From: Candidatus Omnitrophota bacterium
Lineage (GTDB): Bacteria > Omnitrophota > Gorgyraeia > Tantalellales > Tantalellaceae
DNA length: 61,238 nucleotides
Assembly: GCA_014728045.1 (NCBI GenBank)
Contig: WJMH01000012.1
Span: forward strand, 1 to 61,238
Direction of reading: 5' to 3'
The position numbers were made by a program, and so were the translations under genes. Shown here in pieces: positions 17 to 34,755 of the stretch. Under the pieces are notes generated by a model. That model saw only the letters and a program-made list of their open reading frames with translations, ran no database searches and was not told the origin of the DNA. Numbering within the stretch: the first letter of the stretch is position 1; each line of letters begins with the position of its first letter.

Positions 17-3000
17 ATGAGCACGAAGGTGAGAATGGACAGGCCGGGTACTCGTATCCTGGACGAGGAGAAAAGGGAGAGTATCAACGAAAGCCTTTCC
101 TCCGATGAACTTGCCAAAGAGATCGCCGATCAGCTGGGTGTGGAACAATACGGTATGAGGGCGGCCACCCCTGACAAGGTAGTGACAAGGCTTAAGGCAA
201 AGGGCGTCAGGATCAGCGACGACTGGAGGGAGTACACGGACCTCAAGCGCATGGTCCTATCATTCGCTTCCAGAGTATTTTCTGAGATGAGGGTGATCTC
301 CCATTACAAGGTAAATACATATATAAGGAACAACCTTCCCGAGGGGCTTTTGGCCGATACTCTCGAAAAAAGGCAGGAGAACCTCAGAAAGCTGTATCCG
401 GACAAGATCGACAGCAAGGATTACGGAGAAGATTACCAGATAAGCGCAAGGGTCATACCCGTAAAAGGGCTTTACGCGGCAACAGGGATAAAGGCGCAGA
501 TAGGCCTGGGCAGAAGTTACGGGGAACCCGTGATCTATATTGATGAGGATTACTGCGACGATCGGATCCTGGCTCATGAATTCTATGAAATGGGCATGTG
601 GGAAGCCAAACGCCGGGATCTGGCTCTTGAACCGCAGCAGATGAGAGACTGGATCCGGGAGAACATCGACAAGGCACGTTCTCTTAACAATGAATACCAT
701 GATCAGAACCCTTACCCGGTAACGGGGCACGAAGCTCCGTCGGTGAATTTCATTTATGAGGATGCCTCGGACATCCTGATATCGGGTGCCGAAAACAACG
801 CGAAGGTAATAATAGACGAACTGGTCGATCTCAGGGATAAACCCGGCACCATAACGGAAGCCGTTATCGAAGCTGAAATGGCCAGGATAGAAGCGCGCAT
901 GAGGGAACTGAACGTTTCCAAAAATACGGTCGATAAGAACACCTGGGACAAGCTGCAATTCAAAAAGCAGGCCACCGTATACCACCTCAGAAAACGCATC
1001 GGAGCCTCTGCCAGGACCGCGGACGCCGAAGAGAAACCCGAGAAAAAAGCCGAAGCCCCGGCAAGGAAATCAACGGCTCTCACTCCCCAGGCGAAAATCC
1101 AGCAGAAGATCGCCGAAGCTAAAAGCTGCATGGGGCTTTGGAACAGGTTGTGGGGCGCGGCCGATTATGACCGGGCGATAAAGCTCCTTACCGAGGTGCT
1201 GGAGATGGATAAACACAACCAGCAGGCGCGCCAGCTTTTGGCTACAGCCAAAAGCGCGAAAAAAGACGCCGAAGACAAAATAATCAAAAAGATAACCGAC
1301 AGCCTTAACACGGCCGGCACGGCGATCGCCGACGGCAATGTCAAAAAGGGCAGAAAACATCTTAACTCGGCTCTGGACCAGATCTACGCGCTGGGCGGCA
1401 AGAACGAGAGAGGTAAAAGCCTCAAAGAATGGGCGGATGACCTGAGAACGGAGCTCAACAACGAGATAGCCAAACAGAGAGGCAAGGCTCCCAAGAAGAA
1501 AGCCCCGAAAAAGCCAAAGAAGAAAGAGCAGGGGCCCCCTGAAGATATGCAGCTGGGCAAGAAAGCCATCCGCTCGGTTCCAAGGCCGGTCGTAAGCGAA
1601 GGCGTACCGGAAGCTGAAGAAAGTGAAGAAGCATCAGAAGAAGAAACGGGGCCTGAGATAGCAAGACCGGTGCCCCCGGCTCCCAGACCAGAGCCCGAGG
1701 TCCAGGCACCGATACCGCAGGTTACTCCTGTTATAGAACCCGGCAAAACAGCTTTTTCGGAAGAGGTCGAGAAGTTTCTGAACCTGATAGGCCTGAAGGA
1801 AGACTCCGAGGGCTGGGATATAGTGGGTATTGAAGCCCAGAAAGCGGTCGAATCAGGATGCGTCCTTACGGAAATAATGAATTTTTCGCAATGCAAAAAC
1901 ATAGTTTCAAAGGCCACCAAGGCATACAGTACGTTCACCGCTCTTATAGCCCTTTATGAGCCGATCATAAAGAGCGCCGAGAGCGCTCCGGGAACAGATC
2001 TGGCCGGGGTTATCAGCAGTAATCTCGGAATGATAAGCGCCCAGATAGACCAGCTTGAACCGCAGGTCAGGGAACAGGTCCAGAATAGGGCCGAACAGAG
2101 GGCCGAGCCCGCCGATGCCGGTACTTTTGTAGCCGAGATAAAGTATATCAGGACTGATGCCTATTCCCTTATCCTGGAGCCGATAATATCTAAGCTGAAA
2201 GCCCAGAAAAAGGCGGCATCCATACCGCAGGCACAAATATTGACCGATTATTCGTCGATAATGCAGAGGATCAAGGGGCTGGTCGCTCAGAAAGAACATA
2301 TGACCGGCGATGTCCTCGAGGCTGAAATAGCGGCGCTTGAGTCGGATATCGACAGGTTCAACCTCAACGAGGAGACCCTTGAGGGAAGCCGCGATCCGGA
2401 AACGCAGGAACCTTTGTGGGACCGTTTGCAGGCCGCGCTTAGTGAACTCAAGAGCGCGAAAGAAGAACCGGCCGGACAAGAGCCGGTAATAGAGCCTGTC
2501 TTCGAACCAGAAAGCGAGGAAGAGAAAGGCCTGCTTGAAGAGGAGCTGGCGGGCAAGGAGCTTCTGACCCGGGAAGGGTTTCTGGCGCGTTACGGGATTG
2601 AAAAGGACATGAAATTGTACGAATTCGTTTATAACGGTATTGATTCGGACTGGGAGGAACGGCAGAAAGAAAGCCCCGCTCAGCTGGCTGATAAACAACT
2701 TGAGTTCATAGTGCCGGTTGACTCTGCCGAAGAAGCCGGGTATCGCGAGGCTGTCAGCCAGGCGGTTAGCGAGATCGAGGACGGACGGACCGATCTGGCG
2801 ATGCAGTCACTTATACCGGTAATGGGTTTCGAACAGGAGGAGGCAACGCGTGTAAGGCTTATTTTGATATTACTCAGTTACATAGAAAGCATGGAGATCG
2901 AAGAGGCTGGCCAGGCAGAAGAAAAGCCCGCTGAAGAAGCCGCAGAGATCGAGGAAAAGGGCATACTGGAAAAGGCTTATGAAGAAGCGGATGAAGAACC

Positions 3001-6000
3001 GGACCAGGAAAAGGCGCCTGAGGAAAAAGCCGGACCTGAGATAGCCGCGCCTTCTAAAGCGGAAGAAGAAGCCGCTGAAAAAGGCGAGCCAGAGGGTGCA
3101 GAATTCTCACACAGGACGGAAATGTTCATGGACCTTCTGGGGATAGACAGCCACTTAGCCGTATACAATATCATAGCACGTGAAGTGGAGGATGTTATCG
3201 CTTCCGGCAAGAAACCCGCGGACATACTTGACCTGGGACAGGCACGCGAAACTGCCAGGGAAATCAATCTTGAAGCGCAGAAGTTCCAGAGTCAGGTCAG
3301 TTCCGTGAACGCCGAGCTTACCATACTGGAAAGAAGCGGGCTTTCTACCCTCAAGAGCAGGATAAAGGAAAGGCTCAAGTTCGCACTGGGGCAGGTGAAC
3401 CCGAAGACCAGGAAAACAGTTACCGAGAAAATGATGGCGAGGCTGGAAGATGAGTCAGCCAGACCTACCGATACCGGCAGTCTGATAGCGGAACTCTTCC
3501 AGATGAGAGATGACTCGATAGAGCGGCTCGCGCAGCCTGTACTTTCGGCTCTGCGTGAGGGGAAGACGGTCGCCGAGAGGAATGCCGCGAAGATCATGGG
3601 TCTTCTGCAGACGGCAGAAGAGGATATGACGGCCGGCCACTACACCCGCGCCCGCCAGAAGGCTGACAGGGTGCTTGAACTTGATGCCGGTAACGAGAAC
3701 GCCCGGAACATTCTCGCGCGCATTAATCGTATCGAATCGGGTGAACCCGAGGAAGCTGGGAAGGAACAGGCCGATCGAGACCAGGCGAGGTCCGAGACGC
3801 TTATACAGCATAATGAAATAATGGCCGCCGCGGTCCGCCTTATAGGCAGGCTGAGGCATATTGAAATGTATCCTCCCGTAAGCCAGGAGGATATCATACA
3901 GGCCGAGGACGAGATAACCGAATACAGCATGAGCGAAGAGAGCCTCAGGGGCGCTTTGGATTCATTGACCAAGAAGCCTCTCTGGGAGGAGCTTCAGCAG
4001 ATCCTTGATAAGGTAAAGAAGATATACGAAGCCCAGGAAACCCGCCAGAAGAGCAAGGTGGAAGCGACAGCTGAAAAGGGCATAATCGAGATACGCGTGT
4101 GGCTGAAGGACTGGCGCAGGCAGATGGAGCAGATCGATAATGAGAATATCCCCGATGTGGAAAAACTCGAGGATATCATTCGCGTAAAGATGAAGGAGCT
4201 CAATTACAGGAAGAAGGAGCTTGAAGCGCAAATATCCGAAACGGAAAAACAGACCGGCCAGCCTCGCAGAACAACCCCGCAGCAGCTTGAAGAGATGCTT
4301 TACAGGGATTTCGAGTTCTTTGTCAAAGGTGACGGTGAAGTGGCCGGCATCAGACAGATAATCGCCAAGAAAGGCGCCTTCAAGGTCCTTGAGCACATGG
4401 ACAACTGGCATTCAAGGGTTATGAAGTCCGAGGAGTTCGAAAACAAGAGCGTCAAGTACATTGAAGATTTCATAAAAGAACAGCGCGAAGAGATGCACCG
4501 GATAATGAGAAGGTACGGTATTACCGAAGAGATCGTTCCCGAAGACGTTGAAGAACTAACGCGCATGTTCAATTTCTGCGCTATGCAGGCAACGGTCGAG
4601 GCATCCAAGAGAAGGAAACCCCAGCTTACCGAGACCCAGCAGCTCATCGCCCTGGAAGCGCAAAGGGAACACGACACTCGGGAGTTGCACAAAAAATCGC
4701 ACGTTAATATCAAGGCCGCCAGACCCGATCAGAACGACAGGACAAAGGAACTTATCGAGCGCATTAACAAGGGCCAGAGCATGGAAGATATCGCCGATGA
4801 TGCGATCTCGGTGATCGAGCAGGTCATAGCCGAGAACATGGAAGAGGAACCCTCCAGGTTAAAGGAGGAGTTCGCTTCAATGACGCAGCGCATGTACGAG
4901 GAGGCCCGTGCCCTGGAAATAGTTGGTGCGGTTGAGATAGCTTTCAGCAAGATCATGATGTCCGACCAGACCGAAAGGGAGGCCAGGAAGACCATGGTCG
5001 ATGGCTTGAAGCAACTGAGCGTGGTTTTTGATTCTTCGCCGGGTCTCACCAGGAGCGAGGAGTCCAGGATCAATGCCAGCAACGTGCAGAATATGGCTGA
5101 ACGTGTCCTGGAATCCGCTTTCCGTTCCAGGTTCAGGAAATTCACGAATCTTTATGCCAGCCAGAGAAAGGCTGTAAAGGACGTGATCATCAAGGAAACG
5201 ACCTCCAGTGACGGCAGGATCAGGAGCCGGATAGGCCAGATGCCGACATCTTCCGGTAAGACCATAGCCCTTTATACGGCCGCGTATATCATGGCCATAA
5301 GAGCTTTGAGCGAAGAGGGCAGGAGAAACAGAGAGGGTATACTGGTAACTTCCACCGAAGAATCCAAGGCGAAGGAGGACGCCGAAGAAGCGGCCAGAGT
5401 GCTGTCCGAACTCGGCATACAGGTGGGTTTCGTGGGCACCAGAACTGACGGACAGGTACAGGGATATCTCTTTGACAGAGCCACCGGCGATCTGGAGAAG
5501 GTCGAGAACGACAGCAGGGTATATTCCGAGGCGATGGTCGTTTACGGCACTATTGACAAGTTCGTTCACCGTTCACAGAACGAGAAAATGACACAGGACC
5601 CGAATGAGAGACATTTTATCAGCCGGAAATGGCGACTTCGCATGGATGAGGCTGACGTACCTCTTCTATATGACCTTTCAAACCCGTTCATAGTTTCCAG
5701 CACGCAGGGCGATCCAAGGCTTCTGAGGAGGATCGACCAGGTGGTAACAGAGCATATCGTGCTGCGTAAGCTGAGGGAAGAACTGGGTGTCGGCGCGGAG
5801 AGCTTCAACCTTGCGGCCATGCGCGATAAACTGGCCGAGAGAGATCACCACAGGTCCTACGGTGAGCTTACATCCGAAGAGAAAGCCGAGGTGGACGGCA
5901 TTATACGCAGTAATACGGATCTTTACAAGACGAATACCGACAAGAAGGCGGTGATCCTGAACGAAGACGGTTCCTACAGGCTCACGGAAAAGCTCGGTGA

Positions 6001-9000
6001 ACTGGGCATACCCAAGGACAAGATCAAGGCGAATTTAGCCTCTTACTGCGAACTGGCACAGACGGCGATCGCCGCGCACCTTTTTGACGAGAAATACACC
6101 CATTACATGGAAATGCCCGTTCAGGGAAAACAGGAAATAGTAATGCTGGACGAGGGTACCGGCCGCGTCAAGTTCGGAAGGCTTCCGTACCATCTCCAGG
6201 CCGCAATAGAGGCCAAGGAAGAATTCCCCGTCAGGCCGGAAGAGGATACCGACCTCATTTACCAGATAGACGGTATTGTCCGCGAAAAGATCCTTAACCA
6301 TCCGGGGCTTTACGAAAAGAAGGAGAACGAAAGGTTTGTCATGCTGAACTCCCGCGGTCTCGAGGTACTTCAGCAGGCACTGGTCGATTCGGGCAGGAAG
6401 ATCGACGAAGTCAAACAGGACATGTCCAAGTTCGAGGAGCTGGCCGAGAGGGCCCTGGCGGCGTCTCTTTTCTACGTGAAGGACAAGGATTACAGCGTAA
6501 TGAAGGTGAACGGCAAGGACGAGATCATACTGCTGGACGAGGGTACGGGTAAACCCATGTACGGCAGGAGGCTTTCGCATGGCCTTCACGCCGCTATAGA
6601 GGCCAAGGAAGGCCTTGAAGTTCGGCCCGAGGGCGTTGTCGTAGCATGGGGCACCTTGACGGGATTCCTCAAGCAACCTTTCATACATTCTTTCGGCGGT
6701 GTTACCGCGACAAGCGAGAAGGACGCCATGTGGCAGCTTCACCGCCTCAGGACGGTCGACATCCTGCAGCAACTCAGGGAAGAGCTCTCGATAAGGCAGT
6801 TCAATAAACCCTATTTTAACCTCAGCGACGAGGAAAGGTCCCAGATAGACAAGGCCGTGATAGAAAGCCGCAGGGAGGAAAAAGACCCGCAGATATATGC
6901 TACCCGCACGAGAAAGGTAAAGGCGGTCCTCAGGGTAGTTATGAGAGAACACAAGAACGAGCAGAAGAGGCCCATCCTGATAAAGGTCGCCAATGACCTC
7001 GAAGCCAGGGAGATGGCCGCTCTTATAAGGAACGGCCTCAGTGAGAACACCGGTAAAGATCTCCTCGAGGAAATGGCCCGGAAACAGTTCAATAAACATT
7101 ACAAAGACCTCAGCGAGGAAGAGAAGAACAAGATCAATAACATAGAGCTTATGACCGCGGCCACCTACGCGGACATCGACCAGATAAAGAAAAGAGCCGG
7201 TAAAGAAGGCCAGATCACCATAGTCACCAACCTCGGCGGACGCGGTATAGACATAAAACTTACCGCTGAATCCTCCAGGATAGGCGGACTTTTCGGCATA
7301 TCCACGTATTTTGACGAGCTGTCAGCTTCGGACATACAGTTCAGGGGCCGTGTCGGAAGGAACGGACGCCCCGGTGTATGGATGGGGTTCTGGTCTCTTG
7401 AAGACAGGGCTTTCACCAAATATGCGGAAGCTCATCCGGAAGGGGTCAAGGTGCTCAGGGATCTGCTCGATGCTGTGGAAAAGGACGAATCCAGGCCCAG
7501 CAAGCATATAGGGGGTGAACCCATAGTCAAACAGATCGTTGAAGAGATAAGGGAGTCGATCAAGAAAAGACATATCTATGCTAATCGCCAGCACCAGGAA
7601 CTTTCCGAATACATAGGGAAACTGAAGGTTTCTTTCTTCGAGAAACGCGAAGAAGCGGTGGAAATGTTGCGTCAGGTGGTTGACAGGATGCAGGTGGAGA
7701 AGCAGAAACTTGAGGATATCGACCGCAATATAATCGAACACGGGGAAGAGTTCATGGACCTGATCGGGGAACCGGCGCCCTCAAGGGACGCATCAGCTTC
7801 CCAGATAATCGAAAAAGTAATGATAGCCTGCGACGAGGATGAGGAAGTGGGCAGGAATATCACGGATCTGGCCGCCAAGGGGATCACATCCGCCGATCAC
7901 CTGATAAAGATCATGGGTAGAAGGGAGTCCTTGCTCGAGACCATAAGAGAGCTCGAGGTCGAACGCAAGAAGCTCATGTTCCCGATAGTCAAGATGGACG
8001 TCTCCTGGAAGAGATTTCTCGGGAAAGCCGGAAACATACAGAAGGACCTGGACAGGTTCCTGAGGCATTACGGATGGCGCCAGGCTCTCCTGCAGATAGA
8101 CCCGGTCGTTAACCGCGAAGCCATGGTCAAAGAAGCCTATGAATCGGAGTTCGGTGCTCCCCACAAAAGTTTGAGCTTTTTCCGGATCGCCGTTAGGGCG
8201 CTTCTGGCTATGGGAGCCCTTTTTACCACCACAATGTTCGCTCCGAATGTCATCGTCAGCTTTTTCGATATACTGGGATTGCCGGCGACTCCCGGGTATA
8301 TCCTGCTAATAGCTATCGGCGCTCTTATAGCCGTGAACCCGCGGATAGGCCTTTCGGTACTTACGATGACCGCTTTCTGGGCCATATTCAAAAGCCTTTT
8401 CAGGGTAATGGACATACAGTATCTGACGGTCAAGCTTACTTCCGACGCGTTCTCGCTATTATCGAATGATGCTTATCTTATTTTCCTGACCGGCCTGGCC
8501 GGGGTCGTATTTCTGGCGGTCACGATGATGATGCAGAGGAAATTCCTTAAACAGTTCCAGGAAATGGACAAGAGCCTCAGGAATTTTGCCAGGGCCTTCC
8601 ATGAAATAGACGGAGTGAGTTTTACGGGTTCAATGATCAAGTTCGTGTTCCAGCAGGTGCTCAACCTTGTCAATTACATCGCTCCCATGCTGGCGGGGCT
8701 TTGTCTTATAGTGACCGCGGCGTTTCCGCCTTTCATAGAAGGCGCTTTGGTAGTGGCTCCGGTGACCGTGGGTGTGGGCGCGGCAATTGGCGCTCTGGGC
8801 ATGTTGACCACGGGCGTGACCATACTCGTGAACTGGAAAAGGATAAAGGAAAGAGGAGTGCACCGCCCCAGTCTGGCAGAAAGGTATTTTACGGTCATAA
8901 TAGACAGCGTTCTGACGCTTTCCGCAGGTGTTTTCGTTTTCACGATGGCGACGCAGGTCAATCCTTTAACCTATATAGCCGGGCTTGCCGCGGCCGCGCT

Positions 9001-12000
9001 GCTGATGGTGACCGCGAGGAAGGTCATATCCAAGGCTTTCGGCACGCATGCTCTGCACTGGAAGACAATACGCATGGGGATCTATACCGCAATTCCCGTT
9101 ACATTGCTGATGCTCGGCGTTACCAAGGCCGTCGGCATGACATCCGCCCCCCTGACAACTGTCATGACGCTTGCTTCGGTTCCGTTCCTTTTGAGTTTGA
9201 CCGGATACCTCGTAGCTCAATGGTATTCGGCGAAGAGGCTTTCTCAGATAGAGTCCAAGATAACGGGTATTTCAAGGACCAGAAGCCTTGTGGCCACGAT
9301 CTTCGAACAGAATGTTCTTAACGTAAGGCAGTGGGCTCCGGGGCTGGGAGCTGTGGCCACAGTTACGCTTTCGGTATGGGGTCTGTTCAGCAAAAGCAGT
9401 CTTATTTCAGGGGTACCGATAACCGTCGGGGTTGTGCTCGGCCTTTATCTTGTGCTGAGAATAGCAAAGGCGATTTATAAGTACCAGTACGCCAACAGCA
9501 ATATCTCCGAGAAATCCATCAAGAGCCTGAGGCTCGCAAGGGATGTAATATCCCGCAACGAGATGATCCGGCTCAGAAGCAGTATCATCGCTTTCAAGAA
9601 GGAGCGCTTCAACACGGATAACCCGTATCTGCTGGCGATCAACAAATTATGGGATGCCTCGGAAGACAATTCGGTCCTCAGCAGGATAATGAACGAGATC
9701 ACGATACACGGTCCTCCGAGCGGCGGGAAATGGGATATATCTGATCTTAAACGCAGTATAGAGAATATCATATATTTCCGCAATACCGTGAACCTTCACG
9801 GCGAAGTCATGCAGAGGAACGAACATGGTGAACTTGCGGTGAACGCCTACCTGGCGCTTTTCAGCGAATTCAATCTCGTCAGGACATATCTTGATAAAGC
9901 TTATGAATCGGCGCGTGATCCGGAGAACTGGATGAAGGCGCTGAGGTATTCGTTCCTTTTTGCCATAGGTTTTCCGATGCTTACCGGCGGCGCGAAGGCC
10001 GCCCATGTCAAACGCACAGAAGCGGTCTATAAACATGAGCAGCAGCTCGAGGAGCAGAGGACCATGCAGCAGATGCGCCGTAACAGGCTCACGGAGCTGC
10101 AGAACATGGAATCGGAAATAGAGCGCATGCTTAATTTCATGCGCCGCAAGGCCCTGCAGGGTGATGTTGAACAGTTCGAAAAGACCGAGGAAAGATTAAA
10201 AGCAACGCTGGAACTGTACCGGTCCGGCAACGCTGAGCTGCTTACCGAACAGGAGAGAGGGGATATTAAGTCCAAATCCACCAATTATGAACTCCAGGCG
10301 CAAAGGCACAGAGCGCTTCTTGAAAAGGTGCTGGCCCAGAGAGAGGCATTTAAAAACGCGAGGAAGCAGGCCAGGCTCAAGGAGCTTGCCGACAGGATAG
10401 ACCAGATACTTGATAAGATGAACGATGCGGCCGAAGGCGCGGACAAGGATGCTTTCGACAGGTGGGCCGCGGAACTGGAGCATATGCTTGAACGCCTTGC
10501 GGAAAACCCGGATATAGGGAAGGATCACCGCCTCATTCTTGAGAACAGGAGACTTGCCGGGATATCCAGGTCGATACTGCAGGCAAGGTTAGATGCCAGG
10601 GAAAAGGAAGTCAAAAGGCTTGAAGAGTTGCTCAAACAGATAAATGCCGCCATCATAGATGCCCACAAGAACGTTTTCGACGAAAAGGTGAGTGAAATGA
10701 AGAAAGCTCTTGCCGAAACGGAACTTCTTGATGAAAGGACCAAGGACAGGTATTCAAGAAGCATAGTTAACGCAGAAGCTGCCATGAAAAGAAGGCTCGA
10801 CGCTCTTGAGAAGGCCAGGGACGAAAAAGAAAAGGCCCAGGTAACAGAGATAGAGTCGATACTTGCAAAGATGGAAGGATCCGCCAAGGCCGCCGACGTG
10901 GCTCTCTTCAACAAACTGAAACAGACGTTGGAGAAAGCCCTAGATTCGGCTGATATGGTCGATGATGTGTCGAAGACCGGTTACAGGGTAAGAGCCCACG
11001 AGGCTGGGGTGCTTTTGAAGGAAGTAAGGGACGCCATGGCGGCCTATCATGACAGGGTCATCAAGTTCGCCAGGACCGCACCGCAGTATGCTTTGGCCGA
11101 GAACGCAGAGAACACCGAGCAGGCCTGGGAAAAGTTCAGGGCCGACGCGGAGAAGATCAGAAGCGAGGCCCCCGGGGTCTATGACTCCGAACTGGTGGAT
11201 GCTTATTTCAGGCTCGGGGAGATACTCCTCCGGAGCGCCCTGAGCGACAGGGTGGATACAGCCGATGTCATAAAGGTCAGAGAGCTTCTTTCCCGCGCCA
11301 AAAAGAGCACCGAGGAGATCGACAGGATAAAGGAACTCATAGATACAATAGCCGAGGAAAAGACCCTGGATAACAGGCTCTTCATACAGCTTGTATTCGG
11401 GTATTCGCTTGGGGACAGGTTGCCGCGGTTCGCGGTGGGGGACGGTTCGGGCAGTACTTCGAGTGACCTGCCGGTAAGTGTGGATTTCAGCGGCTTCCCG
11501 CAGGTGCCGCTATCCACTGCAGACCGCATCCGCCTGGTCAATTCCTTCGAGTCCCAGCAGGACGCTTTGGGCAGATGGTGGATAATGATAAGCGACAATG
11601 GTACACAGAGCGATACCAGTGACGATATCTGGATAGCCGCCGATACATATAATGACATGATCCAAGATCTCTATCCGCAGATTCAGCAGCTCGCCACCGA
11701 AACAGGACATACTATAGATCCCTCATGGCCGGCTACGGTATTTATCGCCAATGCCGGCAATAACAGCGCTCCCGAATGGCAGAGGAACATACGTGAGTTG
11801 GTTAACTGGCTGATAATAGCCGAACAGGCCGGGATATATGAACATTCCGCCTCCGACATGATGGATAACATCATGGAGAACATGGACGATGTTAACGATT
11901 ACCTACGTGAGTACGGGGACGGGGAACTTACCCTCAGTGACGAGGAAGAACTAGGATTGCTCCTCTGGGTCTCTCAGGGGACGGCTGACGGGCATTCGGT

Positions 12001-15000
12001 TGACGAATTATTGTTCCATCCCAGGGAACTGGCCCGGCTGATGATGAATTTCTCCATATATGACAGTGACCACGGAGCAAGGGCGAAAGCCGTTGCAGCC
12101 GCCAAGAGGAAAGCCGAAAGCATGTGGAAGGCCGCAAGAAGCAGGAACCTTCTCATTACGGTAGAACGTCTCGTGGAGCTTAAGACCTCTCTTGCGGACG
12201 TGGACAGGATGTCCCATGAGATAGCGGAACTGGACGCCCGTATCAAGAAGGCCGGCCGGGAAGAGAAGATCATCCTCCAGCAGAGGAGGCTCCTTCTCGC
12301 CAGGCGCCTTGCGGCGGCCAGGAAGAAGTCGAGAATTGAACAGGTCCGTATCAAATGGGCCCTCGGCATCGATATGAACGCGGACCTTGTAAAACAGATG
12401 AACCTGCGCGAAGTGAGTGAGGCAGAACTTGTAAAAGCCCTTGAGCAGGTTTCGGGCGATTATTACTCCACGCGCCTTGAAGCCGCCAGACAATGGGTGG
12501 TGGAAGCCGGCCATTACGCCCCGTCTTTAGTAAGGGTGAGGGCCTCCAGCGGACTTATGGTCAACCTTCTGAGCGTTTTCGAGGAAAAACCGATAGATGA
12601 TATAGTTTCTCTAAGTCTGCTGGACTTTCAGGTCGATTATGATCATCTCCGCAATAAAGAGGATCAGATCGCGCAGAGGGAGGTCGAAACGGCTATAGCC
12701 GCTTTCCGTGACGAGGTCAGGGATATGGACAGCGAGATAAACAAACTTGCCGCTCATATAGAAGGTCTTGAGGCCGTTATAGAGAAGGACAGGGAGGTGC
12801 TCATAGAAGCCCGCGCGGCATACGATCGCATGATAAAGCTTTCCACTGAACAGCCGGCACTGATCGATCGCACGAGCGCCGTCCACATAGTAAAGAACCT
12901 GCAGCAGGCGGAGGACGCGCTAAGGTGGCACCAGCTGCAGCTGAGGATAGCAAGGGCTAAGTTCAGGATGTTCGGAAGGTTCGCCGAAAAGAAGGTGGCC
13001 GATCAGAGAAGAAGGGAAGCGGAGATAACTGACCTTGGCCAGCTTTTCTCAATGGCCCTGAGGAACGGCAGGATGAACCGCATATGGGCCAGGATAGCCA
13101 AAACCCGCGCTATCAAGGAAAAAGAAGCATCTGACAGCTGGTATATCCCCAAACTCATATTCAGCATGAAGCTTTTCAAGGGTTTCACTGACCTTGAATG
13201 GAGACAGGAACATGCCTCGGATAACGATATATTCGAGGATGCGATAGAGGAAGCCGATATCGGGATGAGCATGCGTGCCTGCCTGAGGTGGTATCTGTTT
13301 GACCTTGGCGGTGAGAACCGTGAACTTGCCACGGAATACGCCCTTAAATCGGCGATGCTGGAATCAAAGACCAAGGGCTCCGAGCTCATGGTAGAAATAG
13401 CCAATGCGGTTTCCCGCATAAAGAGAGCTCAGGAAGCCGTGGATATAAAGACTGAGGATGTCGGGTACAAGAAGCTCAGGATAGAGGCGATGGCCGACTC
13501 CGACGACAGACGTCGCCAGGAGTTCTATCTCATACAGCTGGGCAGAGACCTGGAAGGGGCCAGGAACGAGTTGCGTATGGCTTACGAAAACCTCAGGAAG
13601 GTCGTGGGTGCTACGCGCACCAGGATAAAAATAGACCGAAAGATGCTCGATGAGATGGACAGGCAGCTTGAGGAGTTCATGTCAAGCCATCCGGATATGT
13701 TCATAAGAGGTATTGACGGCAGATGGCAGGTGACTCCTTACGGTAAAAGAAGCATGGGTCAGCTGAAAAGAGAACTGCAGAGATCGCTGGATGAACTGGA
13801 AAGGCTTCACAGAAGGGAGAGGCTTTCCGGGCTCGACCAGATCAAGCTAAGGGCCATGATCGCCAATCTGAGGGAAGCGATCTCGGTGATGGACAAGCAT
13901 TTCCAGACCGGCAAGAGCGTGGAAAAACAGATGCCGGTCATACTCAGGACGCTTCACGGGGCCAGATTGTCATATATAAAGGACCAGACACCCAGGTGCA
14001 GCGCGGATATGGAAAGGCTCGAACAGTTCACCGTGGAACTTAAGAGGATCATCTCCGAGACGAAAGATGCGGCTACCGGCAAAGACGCCGAAAAGCTGCT
14101 CGGTGAGGTGCAGAAGCACCTGGCCAAGGCATATAAACGCGAGATCAACAAGATCTTCAGCAGGGCGCGCAGGTATAACATCCGGACCGAAGAAGAAAAG
14201 ATGCATCTAATCATAAAATATTCCCAGACGATACTCGATATCGATAATACCGACAGCCAGGCTGAGGGGTATCTCAAAAAGGCCCAGGACAGGATCGCCG
14301 AGATCGAAAAGATCTCCAGCCGGGACAGGGTCAAAAATGCTTTAAGGACAATGGAGGAGAGGCTCAAGGACACCCCTGGTTGGTTGACCTCCTATAGGGA
14401 GTATCTCGCTTATGCCGCGGAAGGGCTGAGTTCTTCCATCGAAGCAAGGAAGCTGGCCGAAAAGGCGGGCATGGACCTTGGTAAGACCAATGTGGATACC
14501 GTGGAAGCGCATCTTATCGACGCCATATGGAACATGGTCGCCAGAGTAGGTATTCCCGAAGGATATTATGAGGGCTGGGAGCCGGATGCACATTACGGAA
14601 AGGGCCATATGCCCACTCTTGAAATGGATAAGCCCTACTGCGCCGAATCCCGTGAACCTTCGAAGATCATCGAGCAGGTCTTCTCCGGTTACGAGCTGGA
14701 CGAAGTTATAGAATACAGGAGATTCCTGAAGGACCTCCGGGTCAAACTTAAACGTCTGCAAGGCTCCAACAGTGCCAAGGCAGGCGAACTGGTCAGGCAT
14801 ATCGATGCCTATATCTCGCTCTCGGAAGCCAAGATAAACGCGATGAGAGCAGAAGGCGCGCGGACCAGGACCGAATCGGAGATAAACGATATGATCGAGA
14901 ACCAGATAAGCGGCATGGAAAGCGACCTCTCTAGGAGGTTCGGCCTGTGGATACCACCGTTCCACGAATACCATACAACCCGCGGATGGATCCTGGAGTA

Positions 15001-18000
15001 TCTCAAGGTCTACCACAGGGCACAGAAGATAGAGATGCTCGGCCCGAACAGTAAGCAGCAGGATAAGATCGATGGATACAAGAAAGAGGCGAGAAAGAAA
15101 ATAGGCCAGAGGCTGGACGATCTCACGGTGGAAGACGATATTGAAGACCTCCTCGAGGATATATCGCTTGTACGCGCTCTTATGCGTTACGATATACAGC
15201 CCGGCAAGGCCAGGTTGTTCGAGATGCAGAGCCAGATAGCCCTGATAAAACTTATGAACGCCGAACTGGAGGAGATCCTGGAGGATGCTTCGACCGGAGA
15301 ATATGAAGAAGCCATAAAGAACGCGGATAAGGTCCTTACCGCTTGCGTGAGACCTGTCCAGGGTGGCAATAACACTTACACGCAGCTGAGAGATAAGCTG
15401 GTGGCGAACCAGACGAAGGTGCTTATAGCCTGTATGCAGTATAAGGCCGCCGAGTATAAAAAGATAACAGATGAAATCTCCAAGGCGGACAATGATGACG
15501 CGGAGGATTATCTTGATGAACTTGAAGAGGCCGAAGAAACTCTCCGCGGGCTTTACCGGATCGCCGCTTCCTTTGACGAAGCCGAAGGGATCACGCCGAT
15601 CACCCCCGACGGGAAAAAGGTGATAACCGCGATGACGGCGGCTTTGGCCATGGTCAGAAAAGAGCTTGATGCTGTCAACGGCGTAAGGTCGCTGGCCTTC
15701 CTGAAAAGAAGCGTATATCAGCTTAACCGTACGGTGGATTTCGAAAACGACGTGGATAAACTTACCGGTTACACTCGGACAACTGACCCGACCTGCCCGC
15801 TGAGCTCTACGCACCTGAGGCAGCTCAGGACCACCGAGAACGACCGCGTGAGCACGAGAATGCTCGATCGCATACTGGAATCGACCAGCCAGGCCCTCAA
15901 ACATGATAAGGACAATTTCCAGGCCGTTGAACTGCGCCGCAGCGTGCAGGATAAGTACACCATGGTACTCATGGGGCGGCTGAATGATTTGCAGAGAGAT
16001 ATAAAAAGAAGAATCGACAGGGGAAGATCCGCCACACGCGGCCAGATATCGGACGTAGAGGAAGTTGTGAACAGGATCCTCGATGTTAATTCCGACAGGC
16101 TTATCGGCCTGCTCAAACCCGGCGAGGAGAGCATTAACATGCTCAGGAAGATATCCGACAGGACCGGTGCGACGGTCCTTAGCTTCGAGCATCTGCCCGA
16201 GAGCGTGCAGATGACTGATGACGGGCGCAGGATATTCCAGATGCTTATCGACAGCTGCGAGAAGGCCGGCGGTAAGCATACCCCCCACAGGAAGATGATA
16301 ATAGAACTTATACAGCGCAGGTACCACCAGGAAACAAGAGAAGCTGTTTTCTGGGGAGGACCCTTGATACATGTCGATATAGGGATCAGTTCCAGCGGTA
16401 TGGGGCAGTTCTTCGGGAAAACGGCCACCACGCCCTGGAGCAACCTGGTGAATGTCGGGTTCACTAAGAACGGTCTGTTCTGGGTTACGACCCCGATACG
16501 CAAGATACCGATACTGGGAGATATTCTTGAACACATGCTGGGTCTGAAAGGATACATAGAGCATAGAAAACGGAGCATGGAAATGCACGGTGCCAAGTCC
16601 AAAGAACACCTCCAGCGCGCCGAGATGGAAGCAGTGAACCACTGGGTAGCCCTCTGGGGAGCCGTGAAACAGTACCAGTCAACGGACTCCGCCAGGGAGA
16701 AGTTAGCGGCCGAACTGGATGTGCTCGTTGCCGAAAGGGACCAGAAGAAGGAATATTTCTCTTTCAGGAGGAATTACACCGAACTTATGGATCTGGAAGG
16801 ACGCATAGCCAACAAGAGGCTTGAGCTATCACGCTGTGACGCCGACATGCGAGCTTTAGAGACGCTTCTGTATTCGCTCGGGGTCAATGACCCGAAGGAA
16901 TTCATCGCCGAGGACAGTGAGTACGCTAAAAAAGGTTTCGTGGACTCCAAGCTTGATGAAGTGTTCGATCTGTTCGGGGCGGGTTCCAAGGAAGCAGCAA
17001 GCGAATGGGGAATGAGGATGAAGATAAGGATCGCCCAGGACAAGGTGGCGGCGCGACTTCCCTCGGCAACGGGAGAGACCTCAAGCGTGATGCTCGAAGT
17101 CTCTTACGGCGAAGGCTACGCGGGCGAGGTACGCGACCAGTGGAAAACAAGCGTGCGTTTCGCAAGGGAAGAGACAGTTTCGGGAATAGTAGACGCGATA
17201 GGCGGGTATACGAGAGATTCCCGCAGGCACGCGCTGAAAGCTAAAGAACACGAACAGCAACTTGAGAGGCAAACGATGCTGCGCGAACTGGCCGAGCTCA
17301 ATGCGAGGTACTGGAGAGTCGTGGCCGATTACGAGCAGCTCGCGGAGAAATACAGGGTTGCCGAAAAAGCCTGTGAAGACGGCCGGAAAAGAAGGAAAGC
17401 CGAAGAGATCAGGCCGATGCAGCTCAGGGACCTGCAGGACCAGCGCGATCAGGCGAGGGCGAGGATGGAAAAGGCTCTGGCCGATATCAGGATGCTGGAA
17501 ATGGAGTTCAAGACAAGTTTTGGCAAGGAGATACCGGATGCGAGTTTTCTCAGGAACTTCGGGTCTGTTCTCGCGCCGCTGGCCATAGACAGTATAGTGC
17601 AGAAAGCGAAAGCTGCCTCCAGCGATGTGGATTTCTCAAGGGATGAAAAGGTACGCGCACTTGAGGAATACATCATAAGCAGCCGCCAGCGACAGTCCAG
17701 CGTACTGCATTACCTCTCGAGCATAAAACTGGGTGTATGCTTCCAGGACAGCGATTTCACGGCAAAACCGGTTGACGCGGTAATGCCCACGCTTACTTTC
17801 GTGCTTTACGGTTCCAACTGGGAAGCAAGGCGCGATAAACAGCGCAACGAACATATATACAACATTTACCAGCTCCGCAGGAGGCAGTCCGAACTTCCCG
17901 TGGAATACCGGGTAAGGCTCATAGAACTACAGGCAGCCGCTGAAATGCTGAAACTGGAGTTTGAGAACCTTTCCGGAGCGAGCAAGACCATACAGGAAGA

Positions 18001-21000
18001 ATACGACCAGGTGCTCAACGATTACAGGAGGCGCCGCATTGATTTGGATACGATGAAGGCGCGCCTGGAGAAGATAGACAGGAACGAATATATAGAAAGC
18101 CTCGCCTCATTCCTTTCCGCGTACGAGAAGTTCTCGATGCTGACCAGACAGCTCGGCATGGAGATGCCGCCTCTGACCGAACTGGGGGCCGAGAAGGATG
18201 CCGGAAAAGGCGAAGAGGTCAAAGCCGGGGAAAAGACCGAAGAATCAGGAACCGTACCGTCTGAAATAGAACAAACATATACGGCCGTGAACATACCTTC
18301 CAGGGAGGAGTTCGGCAAGGGCCTTAAGAGGAGGACCGGCTGGAGATGGGGTGATTACTGGGACAGTTACAGCGCAAGGCACGACAACCAGCAGATAGAG
18401 GCCTTTCTCGAGAAATACGGCCTCGAGCCCGCCGAGACCAACAAGGCCGGGTTCTTCGCCTTTCGCGAGGGTCTTATCGAGCTGAGCTCCAGGAGAGGAC
18501 ACCTGTTCGGCAGGGGAGGGACGCTTTACCGGTATCTGGTTGACCAGAAGAAGATGTCCGAGGAAGACGCTCTCAGGAAGCTCGCCTCGCTCAGGGATAT
18601 ATACTGGTCCAGGTTCTGGCAGGTCCAGGACCAGATCGTCAAACCTTTCCTCGAGAAAAAACTCGGGTACGAGCCCGACACGGATAACGATTTCGCCATA
18701 CTGATGGCATGGACCGATTACGCGATGGGTGCCGGCAGGGATGAAGGCGCCATGATAGAATATCTGGAGACAGAGCTTAGCGATGACAACCTAGTTACCA
18801 AGATACTCAAGAACTTCTTCCGCGTTCAGATGATGCAGGCGCTGGAGAACGATTATGACAGGGTCCTTGACAGGGTGAGAGAGGCTTCCTTCCATATGAC
18901 GGCCGACCAGCTTCAGGGTGAGGTCGAGACGCGCGGCGTGGATATCGATTCTTTCAGGGGACTTATGGCCGGTTTCGAAAAAGAGGTCGGAGAGTTCCTT
19001 GGGGAGGAAATAGATTATAACAACGAAGCCGACAGGTGGATACTGCATCGCGTGGCCATACTCGCATTAAGAGCAGGCGGCAGGGACGATTTCCGCGGGG
19101 ACCTCGCACTTATGAACATGGTCAAGAAGGTATCCGGTGAATTTTTCAATTTCGACAAGATCACCGCCGAGTCAGCCATGAGGATGCCCGGTTCGGACAC
19201 GCTGAGAAGGATATCCGACAGGATACACGAACTTAAGGCAGCCGGGGAGGATACTACGGCCCTGGAAGTTGTCTTCAACGTGCACATGAAGGCCTTGATC
19301 AGGGGCAAGAAGATCAATACCTGCTATGATACTGTCAGATGGATCAGGCGTGAAACGGACAATACCGCCATGTGGCTCCGAGAAAGGGATCTCACTCTGG
19401 CCGATGCGATAAAGAAAAAGAAAACGGACCAGGATTTTTATGTTCCGATGCTCGTCGTCTACATAAATCAGGCCACCTCTGATCGCGACCCCATGATAAC
19501 GAGCGTAGAGGACCTCCTCAAGGAGGAGAACAGACCAGTTCTTGAAAGGGTCATGAGGCTTTATTACGGGGACCTCAATTTCATACTTACCAGATTCAGG
19601 ACGGACGCCGAGAACGAGAAAAAGGCGATACAGGCCTCGCTGGCCGGGGACCTTTCCGACGCGCAGAGGACTAAGCTCGAAAAAAGGCTCAAAGAGCTCG
19701 AGGATTACCTTTCGACCTATGATACCAATAATCCCTTCCTCGTCGAAGCCTCGAAGAAATGGGTCAGGTTCTACCGAGAGAACTTCAAGGATTCGGCCGG
19801 GTTCAATAACTTCCTGGACAAACAGTATAAACCGCTGATGGCCCAGGAAAGCGTGAAGAAATTCCTGAGCGACGTCGCCGGGGTCAAAGAGGTCGACCGC
19901 TTGATGAGCGAGGATATGATGATATACGGCGGGTACCTGGCGATCATTCTCGAGAAACACAAGATAGATGCCAATGACGAAAAGGCCGTCATAAACTTTT
20001 GCGACCTCGCGCTCCATTTCTTTCAAAAGAACAGTTCCCTGAGGGAGTTCAAGATCGGCGAAGGTAAAGAGCAGATCAAGTATTTCATAGGCTTAGGCGA
20101 ACTTATGGGTACACTGGATTCGGTCGCCCGCAGGTCCAACAGGTCGCTTACCGACATACTCAAGGACGATGACCTTAAGGTGAAAATAACGGAACTGCTC
20201 AGCAAATACAGGTTCGAATACGTTGACTTCCCCAGACAGATAGCGCTGACCGAGGGGCTGATCAAGGGCAGTGTCCCGGAAGGCAAGGTCGTAATGGTCA
20301 CAGCGCCTATCGTGGACGGTAACTTCAAAAAGATAGGCGAATCCATCTCCGTAAAGGACAGGGACAACAAGAACCTGGTCACTTTCGCCAGGGTAAAGGA
20401 ACATGATAACCTGCCCGATGATTATGCGAAAAGCGTGCAGAGAAGGGAAGTGCTGGTATACCGCAGGGACGCGGTATATCCGCAAGAGATGTTCCGCCTG
20501 GTCAAGGATACCGATATTTTCACTCTGGAAAGCCTGGTGGGCGCGGTAAAGATAGGCACCATAAGCACAGAGGCCGTCAGGGATGAGGACGGGACCGTGG
20601 TGGATACCCTTCTGGTGAAGAAGTATCTTGCCGGTTATACGGACGGACTGGGCAACAGCGTTGTCAAGATCAACAAGAAGGGATACGGTAGGACGATCTA
20701 TGAAGAGAAGATAAAAGGGGAAAAGGTCCAGAAGATACACTACCAGTACCACGATAACGGTAGCCTCAAGAGCGTGGAGTATGAGAACGTGCTTAACGCC
20801 CCTGACCCGTACAGGGATCCCCAGGGGTATTTTCTCGCTGAACAGCACGGCCTGATCAAGCGCATCGAGTATGCCCCCTCGGATGACATATTCGTGCCGG
20901 GCCTTCTTGAGAAGATAATTTATGATGACGGGACAGTGGCTTATTACACTGACGGACATATTAAAAGGATCACTTTCAGTGAGCCCCACCGGCCTGATAA

Positions 21001-24000
21001 AAAGACGTATCCGCTGGATTATGATTTCGCGGCCCAGCACGGTCTTGTCGCGGAAATGGTCTTTGACGGAACCTCCGAAAACAGGTCCGTCCTGACCCGG
21101 TATGCCGACGGTACCGAAAGAAGGTATATTACCGCGGAGAACCTTGATGAGGCCAGGGAAGAGCGTCGGCAGAGCGTACGGGAAGATGATATGGACAACA
21201 TCAGACCCGGCAACCTCGGCGAGATAAACGTAGGCAAGAATGCGCATATCTTCAAAGGCCCCGGAGATGTAAGAGAGAAGGCTGCTGAGATGCGCAAAGC
21301 GGATTTCAAAAAGTATCTGGTCAGAACCATCGGGGACGAAGGCAGATCATACTGGACGGCGATAAACGCGTTGATGGACAAGATAGAATCCGATCTGGAC
21401 GAGGATTCCTATACTGAAGAAAAGAGGCAAAAGACCGAAGATGCGATCGCCTCACTTGAGGATATTAACCAGGTGCTGGACGATCCGCTTCTTGAGGATT
21501 ACCTTGACGTTCTGAGGGATTTCCACTTTGCCAAGCTGCACGGCGGAGTAAAACGCGTTGTCTATGAAGCAACACAGGAAAAAGTATCTCGTCCGCTGGT
21601 CATTGAATACACCGATGGGACCAGGGCCGCTTTCGTTTACAAGGTCGACGCTGAAGAACTTACGGGTATAGAGAGAAATATATTCTCAAAAGAGAAGAAC
21701 TGTTACCTTAAGATCCTTACCGAAAAAGGCAAGGCCCCGGTAAGGTATATCTACATCAGCAAGAGCAGGATCGCCCTCAAAGACGATTGTCTCAAGTATG
21801 TCGGGTATGAGACGCCCCTCATTGACAGTCGTTTCAGCAGGCTTCACGGCGGCGTGTCCGCGATTATCTATACCGGTGAAAGCAAAAAAGGCGGAAGGAT
21901 ACTCCTCAAACATTATGCCGACGGCAGCTACGAGGAATACAATTACGAGCACAAGATGTTCGGCGCTTATACCAAGACCCTCTATGAAAGGTCAGCGAGC
22001 ACTATCCGAAAGAAGGTCTTCACTTATGACGCCAAGGACAGGCTTATAGAATTCACCGACCACAATGGGATCACGGACAGGTATTATTACGAGCCAGGTT
22101 TTATCTTCGCCAATCGCGGCCAGAGCGGGAACACTCTGGCGATAGAGGTCGATATAGCGGGCGTGCCCGTAAAGAACGGAGCCGTTCTGGTCTTTAAGAA
22201 CGCTAAGATTACAAGCAGAAAGGAACTTGCCGAAGCAGGTGAGGCTGATTTCGCCTTTTTCTTCAACAAGGAGATAGAAAAGCTCGCCGCCACCGGGCAG
22301 CTGAACAGGATACTCAGTGACCCTGATATGGCTTATGACGCAAGCATCTGGAATAAGACCCGTGACGGTTCGGCTCTTCTGGAAAGGACCGTATGGGAAG
22401 AGGACGTTATAGGGACTTTCGCCACTCTCATGTCCGAGTCAAGGTTCAACGATACCTTTGAGCGCATGGTAGGCATATGGGAAGCTTCCATGCTGAGGGA
22501 CGGGGCGAGGACGCTCCAGTACAAGGCTGGTCATCAGAAGATCGATACGCATAAGCTTTACGCCGACAGGATATACGCCGAACTGAAGGAATTGAAGTCG
22601 CAGATCGAACAGGTCCGCAGCGGAGAGAAGGAAATGGACCATTTCCAGATGGAAACCTGGCAGAGGCTGATAGCGATGAAGTTCAGGGCCTGGGAAAGAC
22701 TGGCATACAGGGAACTGGTGGTCGAGGAAAGAAGCCCTGAAAAATGGATGAACAGGCGAACGGGCGCCAGCTGGTTCAGGAACGTCGTTCTCTCTTTCAG
22801 CAGGCGCAACGACCTGGATATTCTTTTCAAGGAAGTCACCGGCGTATCCGCGGAGAACATCACACCCGTTGAAAAAGTCTCCGTGAGAGGAAAGCTGCCG
22901 GTGGCTGAAGAGATCAATACGAACCGGGAGATCACCCTTGCTCTTACCAGCGAGGAAAAGACCGTTGTCGTGGATACCGGAGCGATGGGAATGAAGGACC
23001 TTTCCGATTCGACTTTATCTTTCCTCGTTAATACCAAGGAATCGTTGTGGCCTGCCATAACCATATACGCTGTTGACGGGGAAGGCCGGGAGAAGGTCCT
23101 GAGAGTCCCCGCCGAATCGGTCAAATACGAAGAGTACAGGAAATACCAGAGGGTTGAGTTCACTCCCTCCTCGAGGGATCTGAGTAATTATACCGAAGAA
23201 GAGGATTTCGACACTTCGGACGTTGTTTCGGTAAGGATCGTTTTCAGGAATACCAGCACAACTCCCGCTAATCTGGGGGTCAGGGACATCATGCTCGAGC
23301 GTAGCACTTCTCTGGCCGATACGGTCAAGGTGACCGAAACCGTGACCGTTGCTGAAGATCAGTGGATGTCCGCTTATGACATGGACGGCAGTATGTACAT
23401 CGATCTCAGCCGGGAAGGCGTGCCGAGTGATCTGGAAGGCAGGTTAATCAGGGTACGCGCAAAACTGCCCGCCACTGTCGCAGGGCCGGGCAGCAGAGTT
23501 ACCGTTTCTCTGATCGACGAGCAGACCAGGGCAAAGAGCGAAAAAGCGACAGTCGATGATGAAGGTTATGTTACCGTAGAGATAGAAGCCCTTTCCAAAG
23601 CCGATTTCGATTCCACTAAAATACTTATGCTCAGGGTGGAATCACCTATAGCCGAACAGGGCATGGAATTCACCGTCTGGCACAAGATAGCCGCAGCGTC
23701 GTTCGCGCTGGCCATAGCGTTGGCTTATTATTTGAAAAGGAACCACGCCAAGCTGGTCGAATGGCTGCGTAACCGTAAGATAAAGGGCCTCGGTAAGACC
23801 GTCGTAAGTCATGCGGACCTCAATAAATACATCAGCGAGAACATGCCGGAAGAGATCCGGAACGCAAAGAACATCTACGAGAGAAGGGAACAGCTCAAAA
23901 AGCTTTGCCCGGAACCATTTACAAGTGAGGATTATCCAGACATGGAGGCCGGTCTTGTGGAGATCCCCGGCCTTTATAACCAGACGGGCGTAAAGGCGCA

Positions 24001-34420: not shown

Positions 34421-34424
34421 TGAC

Positions 34425-34479
34425 GAGGCTGCATGCCGCGGGCTCCAGGCAGAGAGCCGGAAGCCCGCGGATGGGCCTT
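34425..34479 (+). other. Long GC-rich stem-loop immediately after the gene A stop codon
   Basis: ccgcgggct (34436-34444) is the exact reverse complement of agcccgcgg (34462-34470). Pairing continues inward (cc/gg, ggc/gcc around an agaga loop) and outward (cat/atg, aggc/gcct). Confidence 0.65.
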
Positions 34480-34504
34480 GAACATAAAGGACCTTAACCC
34501 AACC

Positions 34505-34560
34505 AGGAACGCCCTTACTTTCAGGCCTGCCAAGCTGCCTGGGGTAGGGGCGTTCTTCAC
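34505..34560 (+). terminator. Probable intrinsic terminator of gene A
   Basis: gaacgcccttactttcaggc (from 34507) pairs with gcctggggtaggggcgttc (to 34555), using G-U pairs and one bulge. A U-rich tail (ttcttcact) and AT-rich sequence follow. Confidence 0.6.
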
Positions 34561-34659
34561 TAGATTTGATAAATGACTATAATAGAATGACTTATAAAAA
34601 TATGGACAAAACGGTATAAAATCATTAATGTTAAATTGGAAAAAGTAGGCTATGTGACG

Positions 34660-34689: not shown

Positions 34690-34742
34690 ATTAGTAGCCA
34701 TTTAAAGTAAGACCATAAAAAAGCCAGAAAATTCAGATATAC

Positions 34743-34748: not shown

Positions 34749-34755
34749 AAATGCG

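Follow-up and report, generated by a model that had tools for sequence, protein, structure and literature searches.

What is a SecA-like motor doing in the middle of a giant bacterial protein, immediately ahead of a block of membrane helices? The question was raised by a stretch of 61,238 nucleotides from a Candidatus Omnitrophota bacterium (assembly GCA_014728045.1, contig WJMH01000012.1, positions 1 to 61,238 of the forward strand), which is referred to here, at its full length, as the window. An original prediction, made from the letters alone, had placed at positions 5130-8150, i.e. residues (aa) 1705-2712 of the first open reading frame (ORF1), a set of SecA helicase motifs in the proper order, with an intact Walker A (GKT), a DEAD motif and motif VI. 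This was borne out by motif reading, Pfam, PDB and Foldseek alike. The stretch was confirmed to be of SecA type, far beyond chance, with the following landmarks (aa numbers are those of ORF1 throughout).

5132..8152 (aa 1706-2712), + strand: SecA-like ATPase domain, made of nucleotide-binding domain 1 (NBD1), two copies of the preprotein cross-linking domain (PPXD), nucleotide-binding domain 2 (NBD2), a scaffold helix and a hairpin resembling the two-helix finger; delimited by Pfam, NCBIfam, phmmer against PDB, and AlphaFold2 (AF2) with Foldseek
5243..5263 (aa 1743-1749), + strand: Walker A (motif I), PTSSGKT; GKT in 8 of the 9 clade relatives whose sequence extends over it, GKG in the relative P0135
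5642..5665 (aa 1876-1883), + strand: Walker B (motif II), MDEADVPL; leading D-E in all 9 relatives that cover the motif, full DExD in 8 of the 9, DEAH in P0041
6869..7426, + strand: NBD2, by Pfam P-loop_SecA
7226-7255, + strand: motif V, TNLGGRGIDI, within NBD2
7337-7375, + strand: motif VI, QFRGRVGRNGRPG, within NBD2

When the stretch alone was searched against Pfam, SecA_PP_bind (7.9e-22, in two stretches), P-loop_SecA (2.3e-14) and SecA_DEAD (1e-10) were all matched above their gathering scores. The phmmer search of PDB returned exclusively SecA and SecA2 chains, the best at 2.2e-26. An AF2 model of the motor was built from an alignment with 36 SecA homologues (predicted local distance difference test, pLDDT, 71.5; predicted template-modelling score, pTM, 0.64), and a Foldseek search of PDB with this model returned SecA structures for each of its 36 best matches (lowest E 2e-28). 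By target TM-score, SecY-bound SecA came first (6itc, 5eul and 3dl8, at 0.60-0.62), with up to 0.62 for 6itc.

Read from the sequence, helicase motifs I, Ia, Ib, II (DExD), III, V and VI were present in the canonical order. Motif Ib was YGTIDKFVHRSQNE and motif III was GGVTATS. The motifs were conserved over 10 relatives at 25-35% identity, and a signature of this clade, KFVHRSQNE, was found in motif Ib, where it replaced the EFGFDYLRDN of SecA.

The motor is not a housekeeping SecA, because its scores fell far below the cutoffs of the SecA equivalogs. The NCBIfam models of SecA and SecA2 gave it 75-177 bits against cutoffs of 725-1493. For the housekeeping equivalogs, the scores were 176.6 bits against 862 (NF006630), 145 against 814, and 133 against 800. 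For the SecA2 equivalogs, they were 138.5 against 930 (TIGR03714), 121.9 against 1085 (TIGR04397), 108 against 1100 (NF012136), and 74.7 against 725 (TIGR04221).

The phylogeny agreed with this separation. A neighbour-joining tree of NBD2 was computed from 51 sequences over 176 columns; in it, those that carry the block of transmembrane (TM) helices were monophyletic and stood apart from canonical SecA in 100 of 100 bootstraps. The distances inside this clade exceeded those among canonical SecA.

Relatives of ORF1 were then compared. A pattern scan of the genome collection gave L001 and L002 only. L001 is a contig of an Omnitrophota metagenome-assembled genome (MAG), and its gene product L001g was collinear with ORF1 at 64% identity, aa 13-5531 of ORF1 matching aa 702-6184 of L001g. 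In the product of L002 (L002g), similarity to ORF1 was confined to exactly aa 1706-3305 (34% identity). This restricted match delimited a module that consists of the SecA-like domain, the TM block and a domain of ~180 aa behind it. The two parts that follow the motor are:

8171..9463 (aa 2719-3149), + strand: block of ~12 TM helices in six hairpins, with alternate loops net positive; homologous blocks in P0039, P0040, P0042-45, P0103, P0135 and L002g
9464..10006 (aa 3150-3330), + strand: cytoplasmic post-TM domain, the end of the module; conserved in P0103 and P0135, and modelled with more confidence than the rest of the TM-block model (pLDDT 70-80)

An exhaustive search of 1.84 billion representatives added P0039, at 74% identity, and seven remoter large proteins (P0040, P0042-45, P0103 and P0135) that matched ORF1 in motor and TM block alike (20-30% identity). 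In all seven, the first predicted TM helix lay ~150-300 aa past motif VI. The closest database relatives were the Omnitrophota MAG proteins P0001 and L001. A search of the metagenome collection with patterns from a 4-sequence alignment gave no confirmed relative (the 9-sequence alignment was too diverse for patterns). The contig of the window was itself in neither collection.

Between ORF1 and L001, the identity was 76% in the motor, with 86% in the second PPXD and 83% in NBD2, compared with 71% in the TM block, 56% upstream and 66% downstream. The motor was therefore the best-conserved region. Judged from these alignments, the motor, the ~12 TM helices and the small cytoplasmic domain are a unit of ~1,600 aa (aa 1706-3330), apparently passed on as a whole and more strongly constrained than the regions on either side of it. 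That the motor was intact, most conserved, and always accompanied by a homologous TM block argued for a functional motor-membrane unit.

Three of the sequences call for separate remarks. The contig L002 (CAZGMX010000016.1) is binned as 'uncultured Actinomycetota', and contains an open frame of more than 7,000 aa with the SecA-like and TM module. This label is doubtful because the contig has a GC content of 54%; it may reflect a binning error, or else the module may occur outside Omnitrophota. P0045 (1,483 aa) was considered as a stand-alone SecA-TM protein and rejected: its contig, L003 (GCA_015231405.1, JADGBR010000028.1), has a frameshift upstream and a run of N's downstream of it, so that the short protein is an assembly artefact of a larger gene. 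The related giant gene on L003 was called as three (855, 1,483 and 2,046 aa) because of a change of frame at ~10,000 (9960-10060) and a scaffold gap of N's (14450-14491). In L003 the SecA-like module lies just ~1,080 aa from the 'head' module described below, and the position of the module within giant proteins therefore varies.

Which parts of SecA were kept in the motor? The sub-domains outside the helicase core were:

5864..6256 (aa ~1950-2080), + strand: PPXD copy 1, SecA_PP_bind in two stretches; 43% identical to copy 2 (E 4e-25) and 64% identical to L001g
6257..6631 (aa ~2081-2205), + strand: PPXD copy 2, nearest to canonical SecA; 86% identical to L001g, the most conserved sub-domain
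7520..7765 (aa 2502-2583), + strand: long helix in the AF2 model (model residues 813-894, 82 residues); its first half, to ~aa 2549, corresponds in alignment to the beginning of the SecA scaffold helix (helical scaffold domain, HSD)
7889..8152 (aa 2625-2712), + strand: helix-loop-helix resembling the two-helix finger, MDVSWKRFL ... RHYGWRQ ... IDP; AF2 helices 936-995 and 1007-1023

The PPXD, which forms the preprotein clamp, sits within NBD1 and is tandemly duplicated. Two copies were found in ORF1, L001g, P0039, L002g and P0001, and a single copy in the more distant relatives. Of the two, the second was the more canonical and the more constrained.

Beyond motif VI, an hhalign comparison of the clade profile with a canonical SecA profile showed that ~100 residues, including the start of the scaffold helix, were homologous (Prob 98%, E 2e-13). 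Pfam SecA_SW (wing and scaffold) was undetected in the motor stretch at E<=10, and in the AF2 model merely ~40 aa separated the end of the scaffold helix (aa 2583) from the next long helix (aa 2625). These two results indicated that the wing domain is absent. The C-terminal zinc-binding tail is absent as well, since no SEC-C (PF02810) match was obtained with Pfam in the motor stretch.

The last of these elements is the hairpin at aa 2625-2712. In a MAFFT alignment, its residues L2657, D2661, W2664 and P2696 fell in columns that are nearly invariant across SecA, as part of the motif 'L..D..W..HL ... DP'. In the AF2 model, Y2685 and W2687 were located in the loop of the hairpin. A profile search of PDB matched the hairpin to residues 748-823 of T. 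maritima SecA, non-significantly. We interpreted this hairpin as the SecA two-helix finger, which is probably, if not provenly, retained.

The original prediction had also described ~12 TM helices straight after the motor. The count holds, and the helices begin at aa ~2719, ~7 aa past the last SecA-like helix, i.e. past the end of the hairpin; this distance is typical of the ORF1 subclade. Hydropathy and charge, averaged over an alignment of nine family members, indicated ~12 TM helices arranged as hairpins with turns of 2-6 residues. Net-positive loops were seen across the family at aa 2839-2876, 2937-2963, 3000-3022, 3066-3109 and from 3148 onward. With a net positive charge in every other loop, the positive-inside rule predicts that the TM block starts and ends in the cytoplasm, on the same side as the ATPase, and that the next ~5,800 aa are therefore cytoplasmic, too.

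L2882, P2890 and R2956 were invariant in the TM block. No relative was obtained from word-indexed homologue searches, whether the query was the TM block alone or the 9-sequence TM alignment; the relatives of the block were found solely by the exhaustive representative search, and all were within the SecA-like clade. Self-comparison with hhalign gave no convincing internal repeat (best off-diagonal E 0.02, probability 2%). As far as sequence can tell, the TM block is a conserved family in its own right, with no detectable similarity to SecY.

The protein that hosts this module is one of three giants. The window consists of three tandem giant reading frames, all on the + strand:

17..34420, + strand: ORF1, one uninterrupted frame, 11,467 aa within the window; hosts the SecA-like module
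34756..54225, + strand: ORF2, 6,489 aa
54421 to 61236, + strand: ORF3, running off the end of the window

The earlier description of a giant protein holds, with two corrections: the PPXD is present twice, and ORF1 is truncated at its 5' end by the edge of the window. From comparison with L001, ~690 aa are missing, comprising a signal-like helix and the 'head' module. This head, common to the giant ORFs, is an N-terminal region of ~520 aa with a signal-peptide-like helix and an 'IQDAH' motif. Residues 3-520 of ORF2 resembled residues 7-522 of ORF3 (32% identity), and the head was also found in L001g and L003; that of ORF1 has been removed by the window edge. Likewise, a C-terminal 'tail' of ~385 aa was shared by ORF1 (aa 11082-11467) and ORF2 (aa 6124-6489; E 5e-13), and by the upstream gene in L001. 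Neither head nor tail had a Pfam match.

The N-termini of ORF2, ORF3 and L001g, the full-length homologue of ORF1, carried a positively flanked hydrophobic helix that resembles a Sec signal peptide. A second copy of the SecA-like module was sought in ORF1, ORF2 and ORF3, and none was found, so that ORF1 alone of the three carries it. Apart from the motor, the sole Pfam domain in the 11,467 aa of ORF1 was a TPR repeat (TPR_19, 4e-6) at aa 379-419 (window 1151-1273). No Pfam domain was matched in aa 3150-8940, and Pfam detected no glycosyl hydrolase, dockerin or peptidase domain in ORF1.

How might such a module work? With modest confidence, we read it as a membrane-integrated, ATP-driven accessory translocase, dedicated to giant proteins and using its own TM block as partner. 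Translocation is suggested by the known roles of SecA together with the strong conservation of the clamp domain. The module would reside in the inner membrane with the motor facing the cytoplasm, where ATP would be hydrolyzed. The motor would clamp an unfolded polypeptide and push it across the membrane, while the finger-like hairpin would be held against the protein's own TM block. The substrates might be parts of its own giant chain, the neighboring signal-peptide-bearing giants ORF2 and ORF3, or both. Since only ORF1 has the module, and ORF2, ORF3 and L001g start with a signal-peptide-like helix, the motor could act in cis or serve its neighbors, by analogy with the accessory SecA2 systems.

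The TM block of the protein itself, rather than SecYEG, is favored as the membrane partner of the motor because it is co-conserved with the motor, has conserved residues and loops, and is joined to the finger-like hairpin by a short tether. This is the weakest step, and SecYEG is a serious alternative. The dedicated, covalently attached translocation motor of the original prediction thus survives in part: the motor is intact, constrained and always found with a TM block, but the block has no detectable likeness to SecY, to Pfam families or to PDB entries. A dedicated, covalently anchored translocation motor is a plausible hypothesis. That the module is a self-contained single-chain translocon, with its TM domain forming a protein-conducting channel unrelated to SecY and moving segments of several thousand residues in cis or for neighbors, appears doubtful.

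Several observations weigh against the accessory translocase. The assignment of the finger is weak, as hhalign paired the hairpin with the finger region of SecA at E 5.6e-4, yet with a probability of just 30%; and the linker between hairpin and TM1 is 40-70 aa in distant relatives. For the TM block, Pfam gave no match at E<=10 and the profile search of PDB nothing significant. Its comparison with E. coli SecY by hhalign (E 0.44) was no better than the reversed-sequence control (0.17). The AF2 model of the block, from a 9-sequence alignment, was unreliable (pLDDT 48, pTM 0.29), and the best Foldseek match of this low-confidence model, at E 2.2, is uninformative on the fold.

The path of the substrate presents a further difficulty. 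Both flanks of the TM block are predicted to be cytoplasmic. The flanks of ORF1, of ~1,700 and ~5,800 aa, were 33-34% charged and without TM helices, and the latter, which follows TM12 and is 33% charged, looks cytoplasmic. In L001g, no convincing TM helix was detected in the ~2,290 aa between the N-terminal helix (aa 44-62) and the motor (aa 2338 onward). With no TM helix before the motor and a cytoplasmic-looking region after TM12, no simple path for the substrate is evident. The original suggestion that the motor threads the rest of the protein through its own TM domain, at least in its simple form, does not fit the predicted cytoplasmic ends of the block and the ~5,800 aa that follow.

The overall topology is a paradox in itself: downstream of a signal-peptide-like helix come ~2,290 aa in which no convincing TM helix was seen, and after these an ATPase whose place must be the cytoplasm. 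The charged region of ~5,800 aa, predicted to be cytoplasmic, is also a poor fit with an 'extracellular adhesin' reading of ORF1.

Could the TM block merely tether the motor, replacing the lost wing and the lipid- and SecB-binding tail, with translocation carried out through the housekeeping SecYEG? We consider this rather unlikely. In its favor, the SecA elements that contact SecY (PPXD, scaffold helix and finger-like hairpin) are kept, the best TM-scores were to SecY-bound conformations of SecA, and the TM block gave no SecY-like or channel-like signal. An anchoring role was suggested in the preprint of West-Roberts et al. 2023 (bioRxiv 10.1101/2023.11.21.568195), according to which SecYEG is present in complete Omnitrophota genomes. 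On the other hand, a simple anchor would need neither 12 helices nor the conserved Pro and Arg. The positive loops and the post-TM domain, maintained across relatives at 20-25% identity, would be superfluous for it. The hairpin, ~7 aa from TM1 in the ORF1 subclade, would also be constrained in docking onto a separate channel.

A second alternative dispenses with translocation. In this case the module would be a membrane-tethered, ATP-driven polypeptide clamp or unfoldase, which folds, assembles, remodels or holds a largely cytoplasmic, membrane-attached giant scaffold. The topology prediction, which keeps both flanks cytoplasmic, is in line with such a role, as are the high charge of these flanks (33-34%, without TM helices), unlike typical secreted adhesins, and their domain content, with no Pfam domain in aa 3150-8940 and just the TPR repeat in aa 1-1700. 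However, the SecA-specific preprotein clamp is the most conserved domain and is even duplicated, and the neighboring ORFs have signal-peptide-like N-termini. Furthermore, no SecA relative is known to act outside translocation. We therefore regard this alternative as improbable.

According to the remaining explanation, the genome's ordinary secA was joined to a membrane protein gene by mis-assembly or sequencing error, or else the domain is decaying and inactive. This is contradicted and hardly credible: giant genes in MAGs are prone to assembly errors, and in L003 one such gene is interrupted by a frameshift and an N-gap, but the same architecture recurs in independent assemblies (P0039 at 74%, L001 at 64%, L002 at 34% and others at ~25% identity), which rules out the sequencing-error fusion, the 34 kb frame is uninterrupted, the catalytic motifs are all conserved in what is the most constrained region, and scores far below the SecA equivalog cutoffs exclude a housekeeping secA.

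Some features of the surroundings were also recorded. In ORF2, a PPDK_N ATP-grasp domain of the pyruvate-phosphate-dikinase type (1.3e-11) was found at aa ~5168-5592 (window ~50260-51530), followed by a 'swivelling' mobile domain of phosphoenolpyruvate (PEP)-utilising enzymes (7.8e-9). Together they make up an enzyme module for phosphotransfer within a giant membrane protein. ORF2 also gave hints, below the Pfam cutoffs, of two further enzymes, a class-I S-adenosylmethionine (SAM) methyltransferase (E 0.005) and an HD phosphohydrolase (E 0.027); in its translation, the sequence 'AHETAH' was seen, which is an HExxH motif. The sub-threshold hints in ORF2 were located at window ~37600-37900, ~40100-40200 and ~42160-42300.

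The intergenic regions 34421-34755 and 54226-54420 were AT-rich (GC 0.445 in the 54001-56000 composition window). Sigma-70-like hexamers were present ahead of the giant ORFs, TTGACC-18-TATATT at 34660-34689 and TTGACT-17-TATACT at 54287-54315, their counts being not clearly above those of shuffled sequence. They suggested separate transcription units. Positions 1-26000 of the window showed a strong excess of A over T on the coding strand (AT skew 0.16-0.33), and the GC skew was uniformly positive over the entire window. Both skews fit a coding sequence that is rich in Glu, Lys and Arg and confined to one strand.

The module bears on a wider question, namely how bacteria with very small cells synthesize and fold proteins 10,000-100,000 residues long and bring them to their place in the envelope. 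The most obvious candidate for this task is a motor derived from SecA and fused to a conserved membrane domain of its own. Should the TM block turn out to be a channel, it would represent a protein-conducting pore that does not depend on SecY. Should it serve only as an anchor, SecA would still clearly have been repurposed here as an accessory motor acting in cis. With defined boundaries (aa 1706-3330), catalytic residues and a set of homologues, a construct of ~1,600 aa can be expressed separately, assayed and imaged.

How does the module compare with known systems? Divergent SecA-like domains in giant proteins of Omnitrophota and some others have been described by West-Roberts et al. 2023. 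According to that preprint, they form a long-branched clade, also occur outside Omnitrophota, may export the giant protein itself, and may be anchored by adjacent TM regions; a normal SecA and SecYEG are encoded elsewhere in complete Omnitrophota genomes with such giant genes. The ORF1 motor is another member of the same kind, and the self-export hypothesis is already published. Like the members of this clade, the ORF1 motor is part of a giant protein with many TM helices, some of them next to the motor; it has SecA_DEAD and PP_bind but no Pfam wing/scaffold domain, and it is separate from normal SecA. ORF1 differs from the 'Archaeovorin' and 'Dockerin' types described there in having none of the glycosyl hydrolase, dockerin and peptidase domains that define them. 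A cluster of 20 proteins with a SecA_DEAD (PF07517) architecture has also been reported among long proteins of Omnitrophota (bioRxiv 10.64898/2026.06.07.730766).

In the passages of West-Roberts et al. that were consulted, we did not find a single homologous module of ~1,600 aa made up of SecA-like part, TM block and post-TM domain, the tandem duplication of the PPXD in a subclade, the kept start of the scaffold helix, or the probable retention of the finger-like hairpin. The additions made here are the exact boundaries of the module, evidence that TM block and post-TM domain are homologous throughout the clade, the duplicated PPXD, the retention of the start of the scaffold helix and probably of the finger, and the negative SecY tests.

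With the housekeeping SecA (TIGR00963/NF009538; 1M6N, 3DIN, 6ITC), the motor shares the DEAD-type NBD1 and NBD2 with all motifs, the PPXD in NBD1, the scaffold helix and the overall fold. Unlike it, the ORF1 motor lacks the wing and the zinc-binding tail, has a doubled PPXD, is only 15-17% identical in structural alignments, and scores 133-177 bits in NCBIfam against 800-862. Housekeeping SecA is also soluble and stands alone, whereas the ORF1 motor is embedded in a giant chain with 12 TM helices covalently next to it.

The ABC-type PCAT bacteriocin exporters and EccC of type VII secretion also combine a motor with a membrane domain in a single polypeptide and serve a dedicated substrate. The analogy with ORF1 is in this one-chain layout; the ATPase and TM folds are unrelated, and no sequence or structure match to the TM block was found.

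In Gram-positive bacteria, the accessory Sec systems (SecA2, or SecA2-SecY2-Asp) serve for the export of serine-rich adhesins of very large size. The ORF1 motor is not an orthologue of SecA2 (75-139 bits against 725-1100), has its membrane partner in cis, and that partner is not SecY-like in sequence; it also belongs to a diderm candidate phylum. In concept, on the other hand, the two are alike: each would be a second, specialized SecA paralogue that serves a few very large substrates beside the general Sec system.

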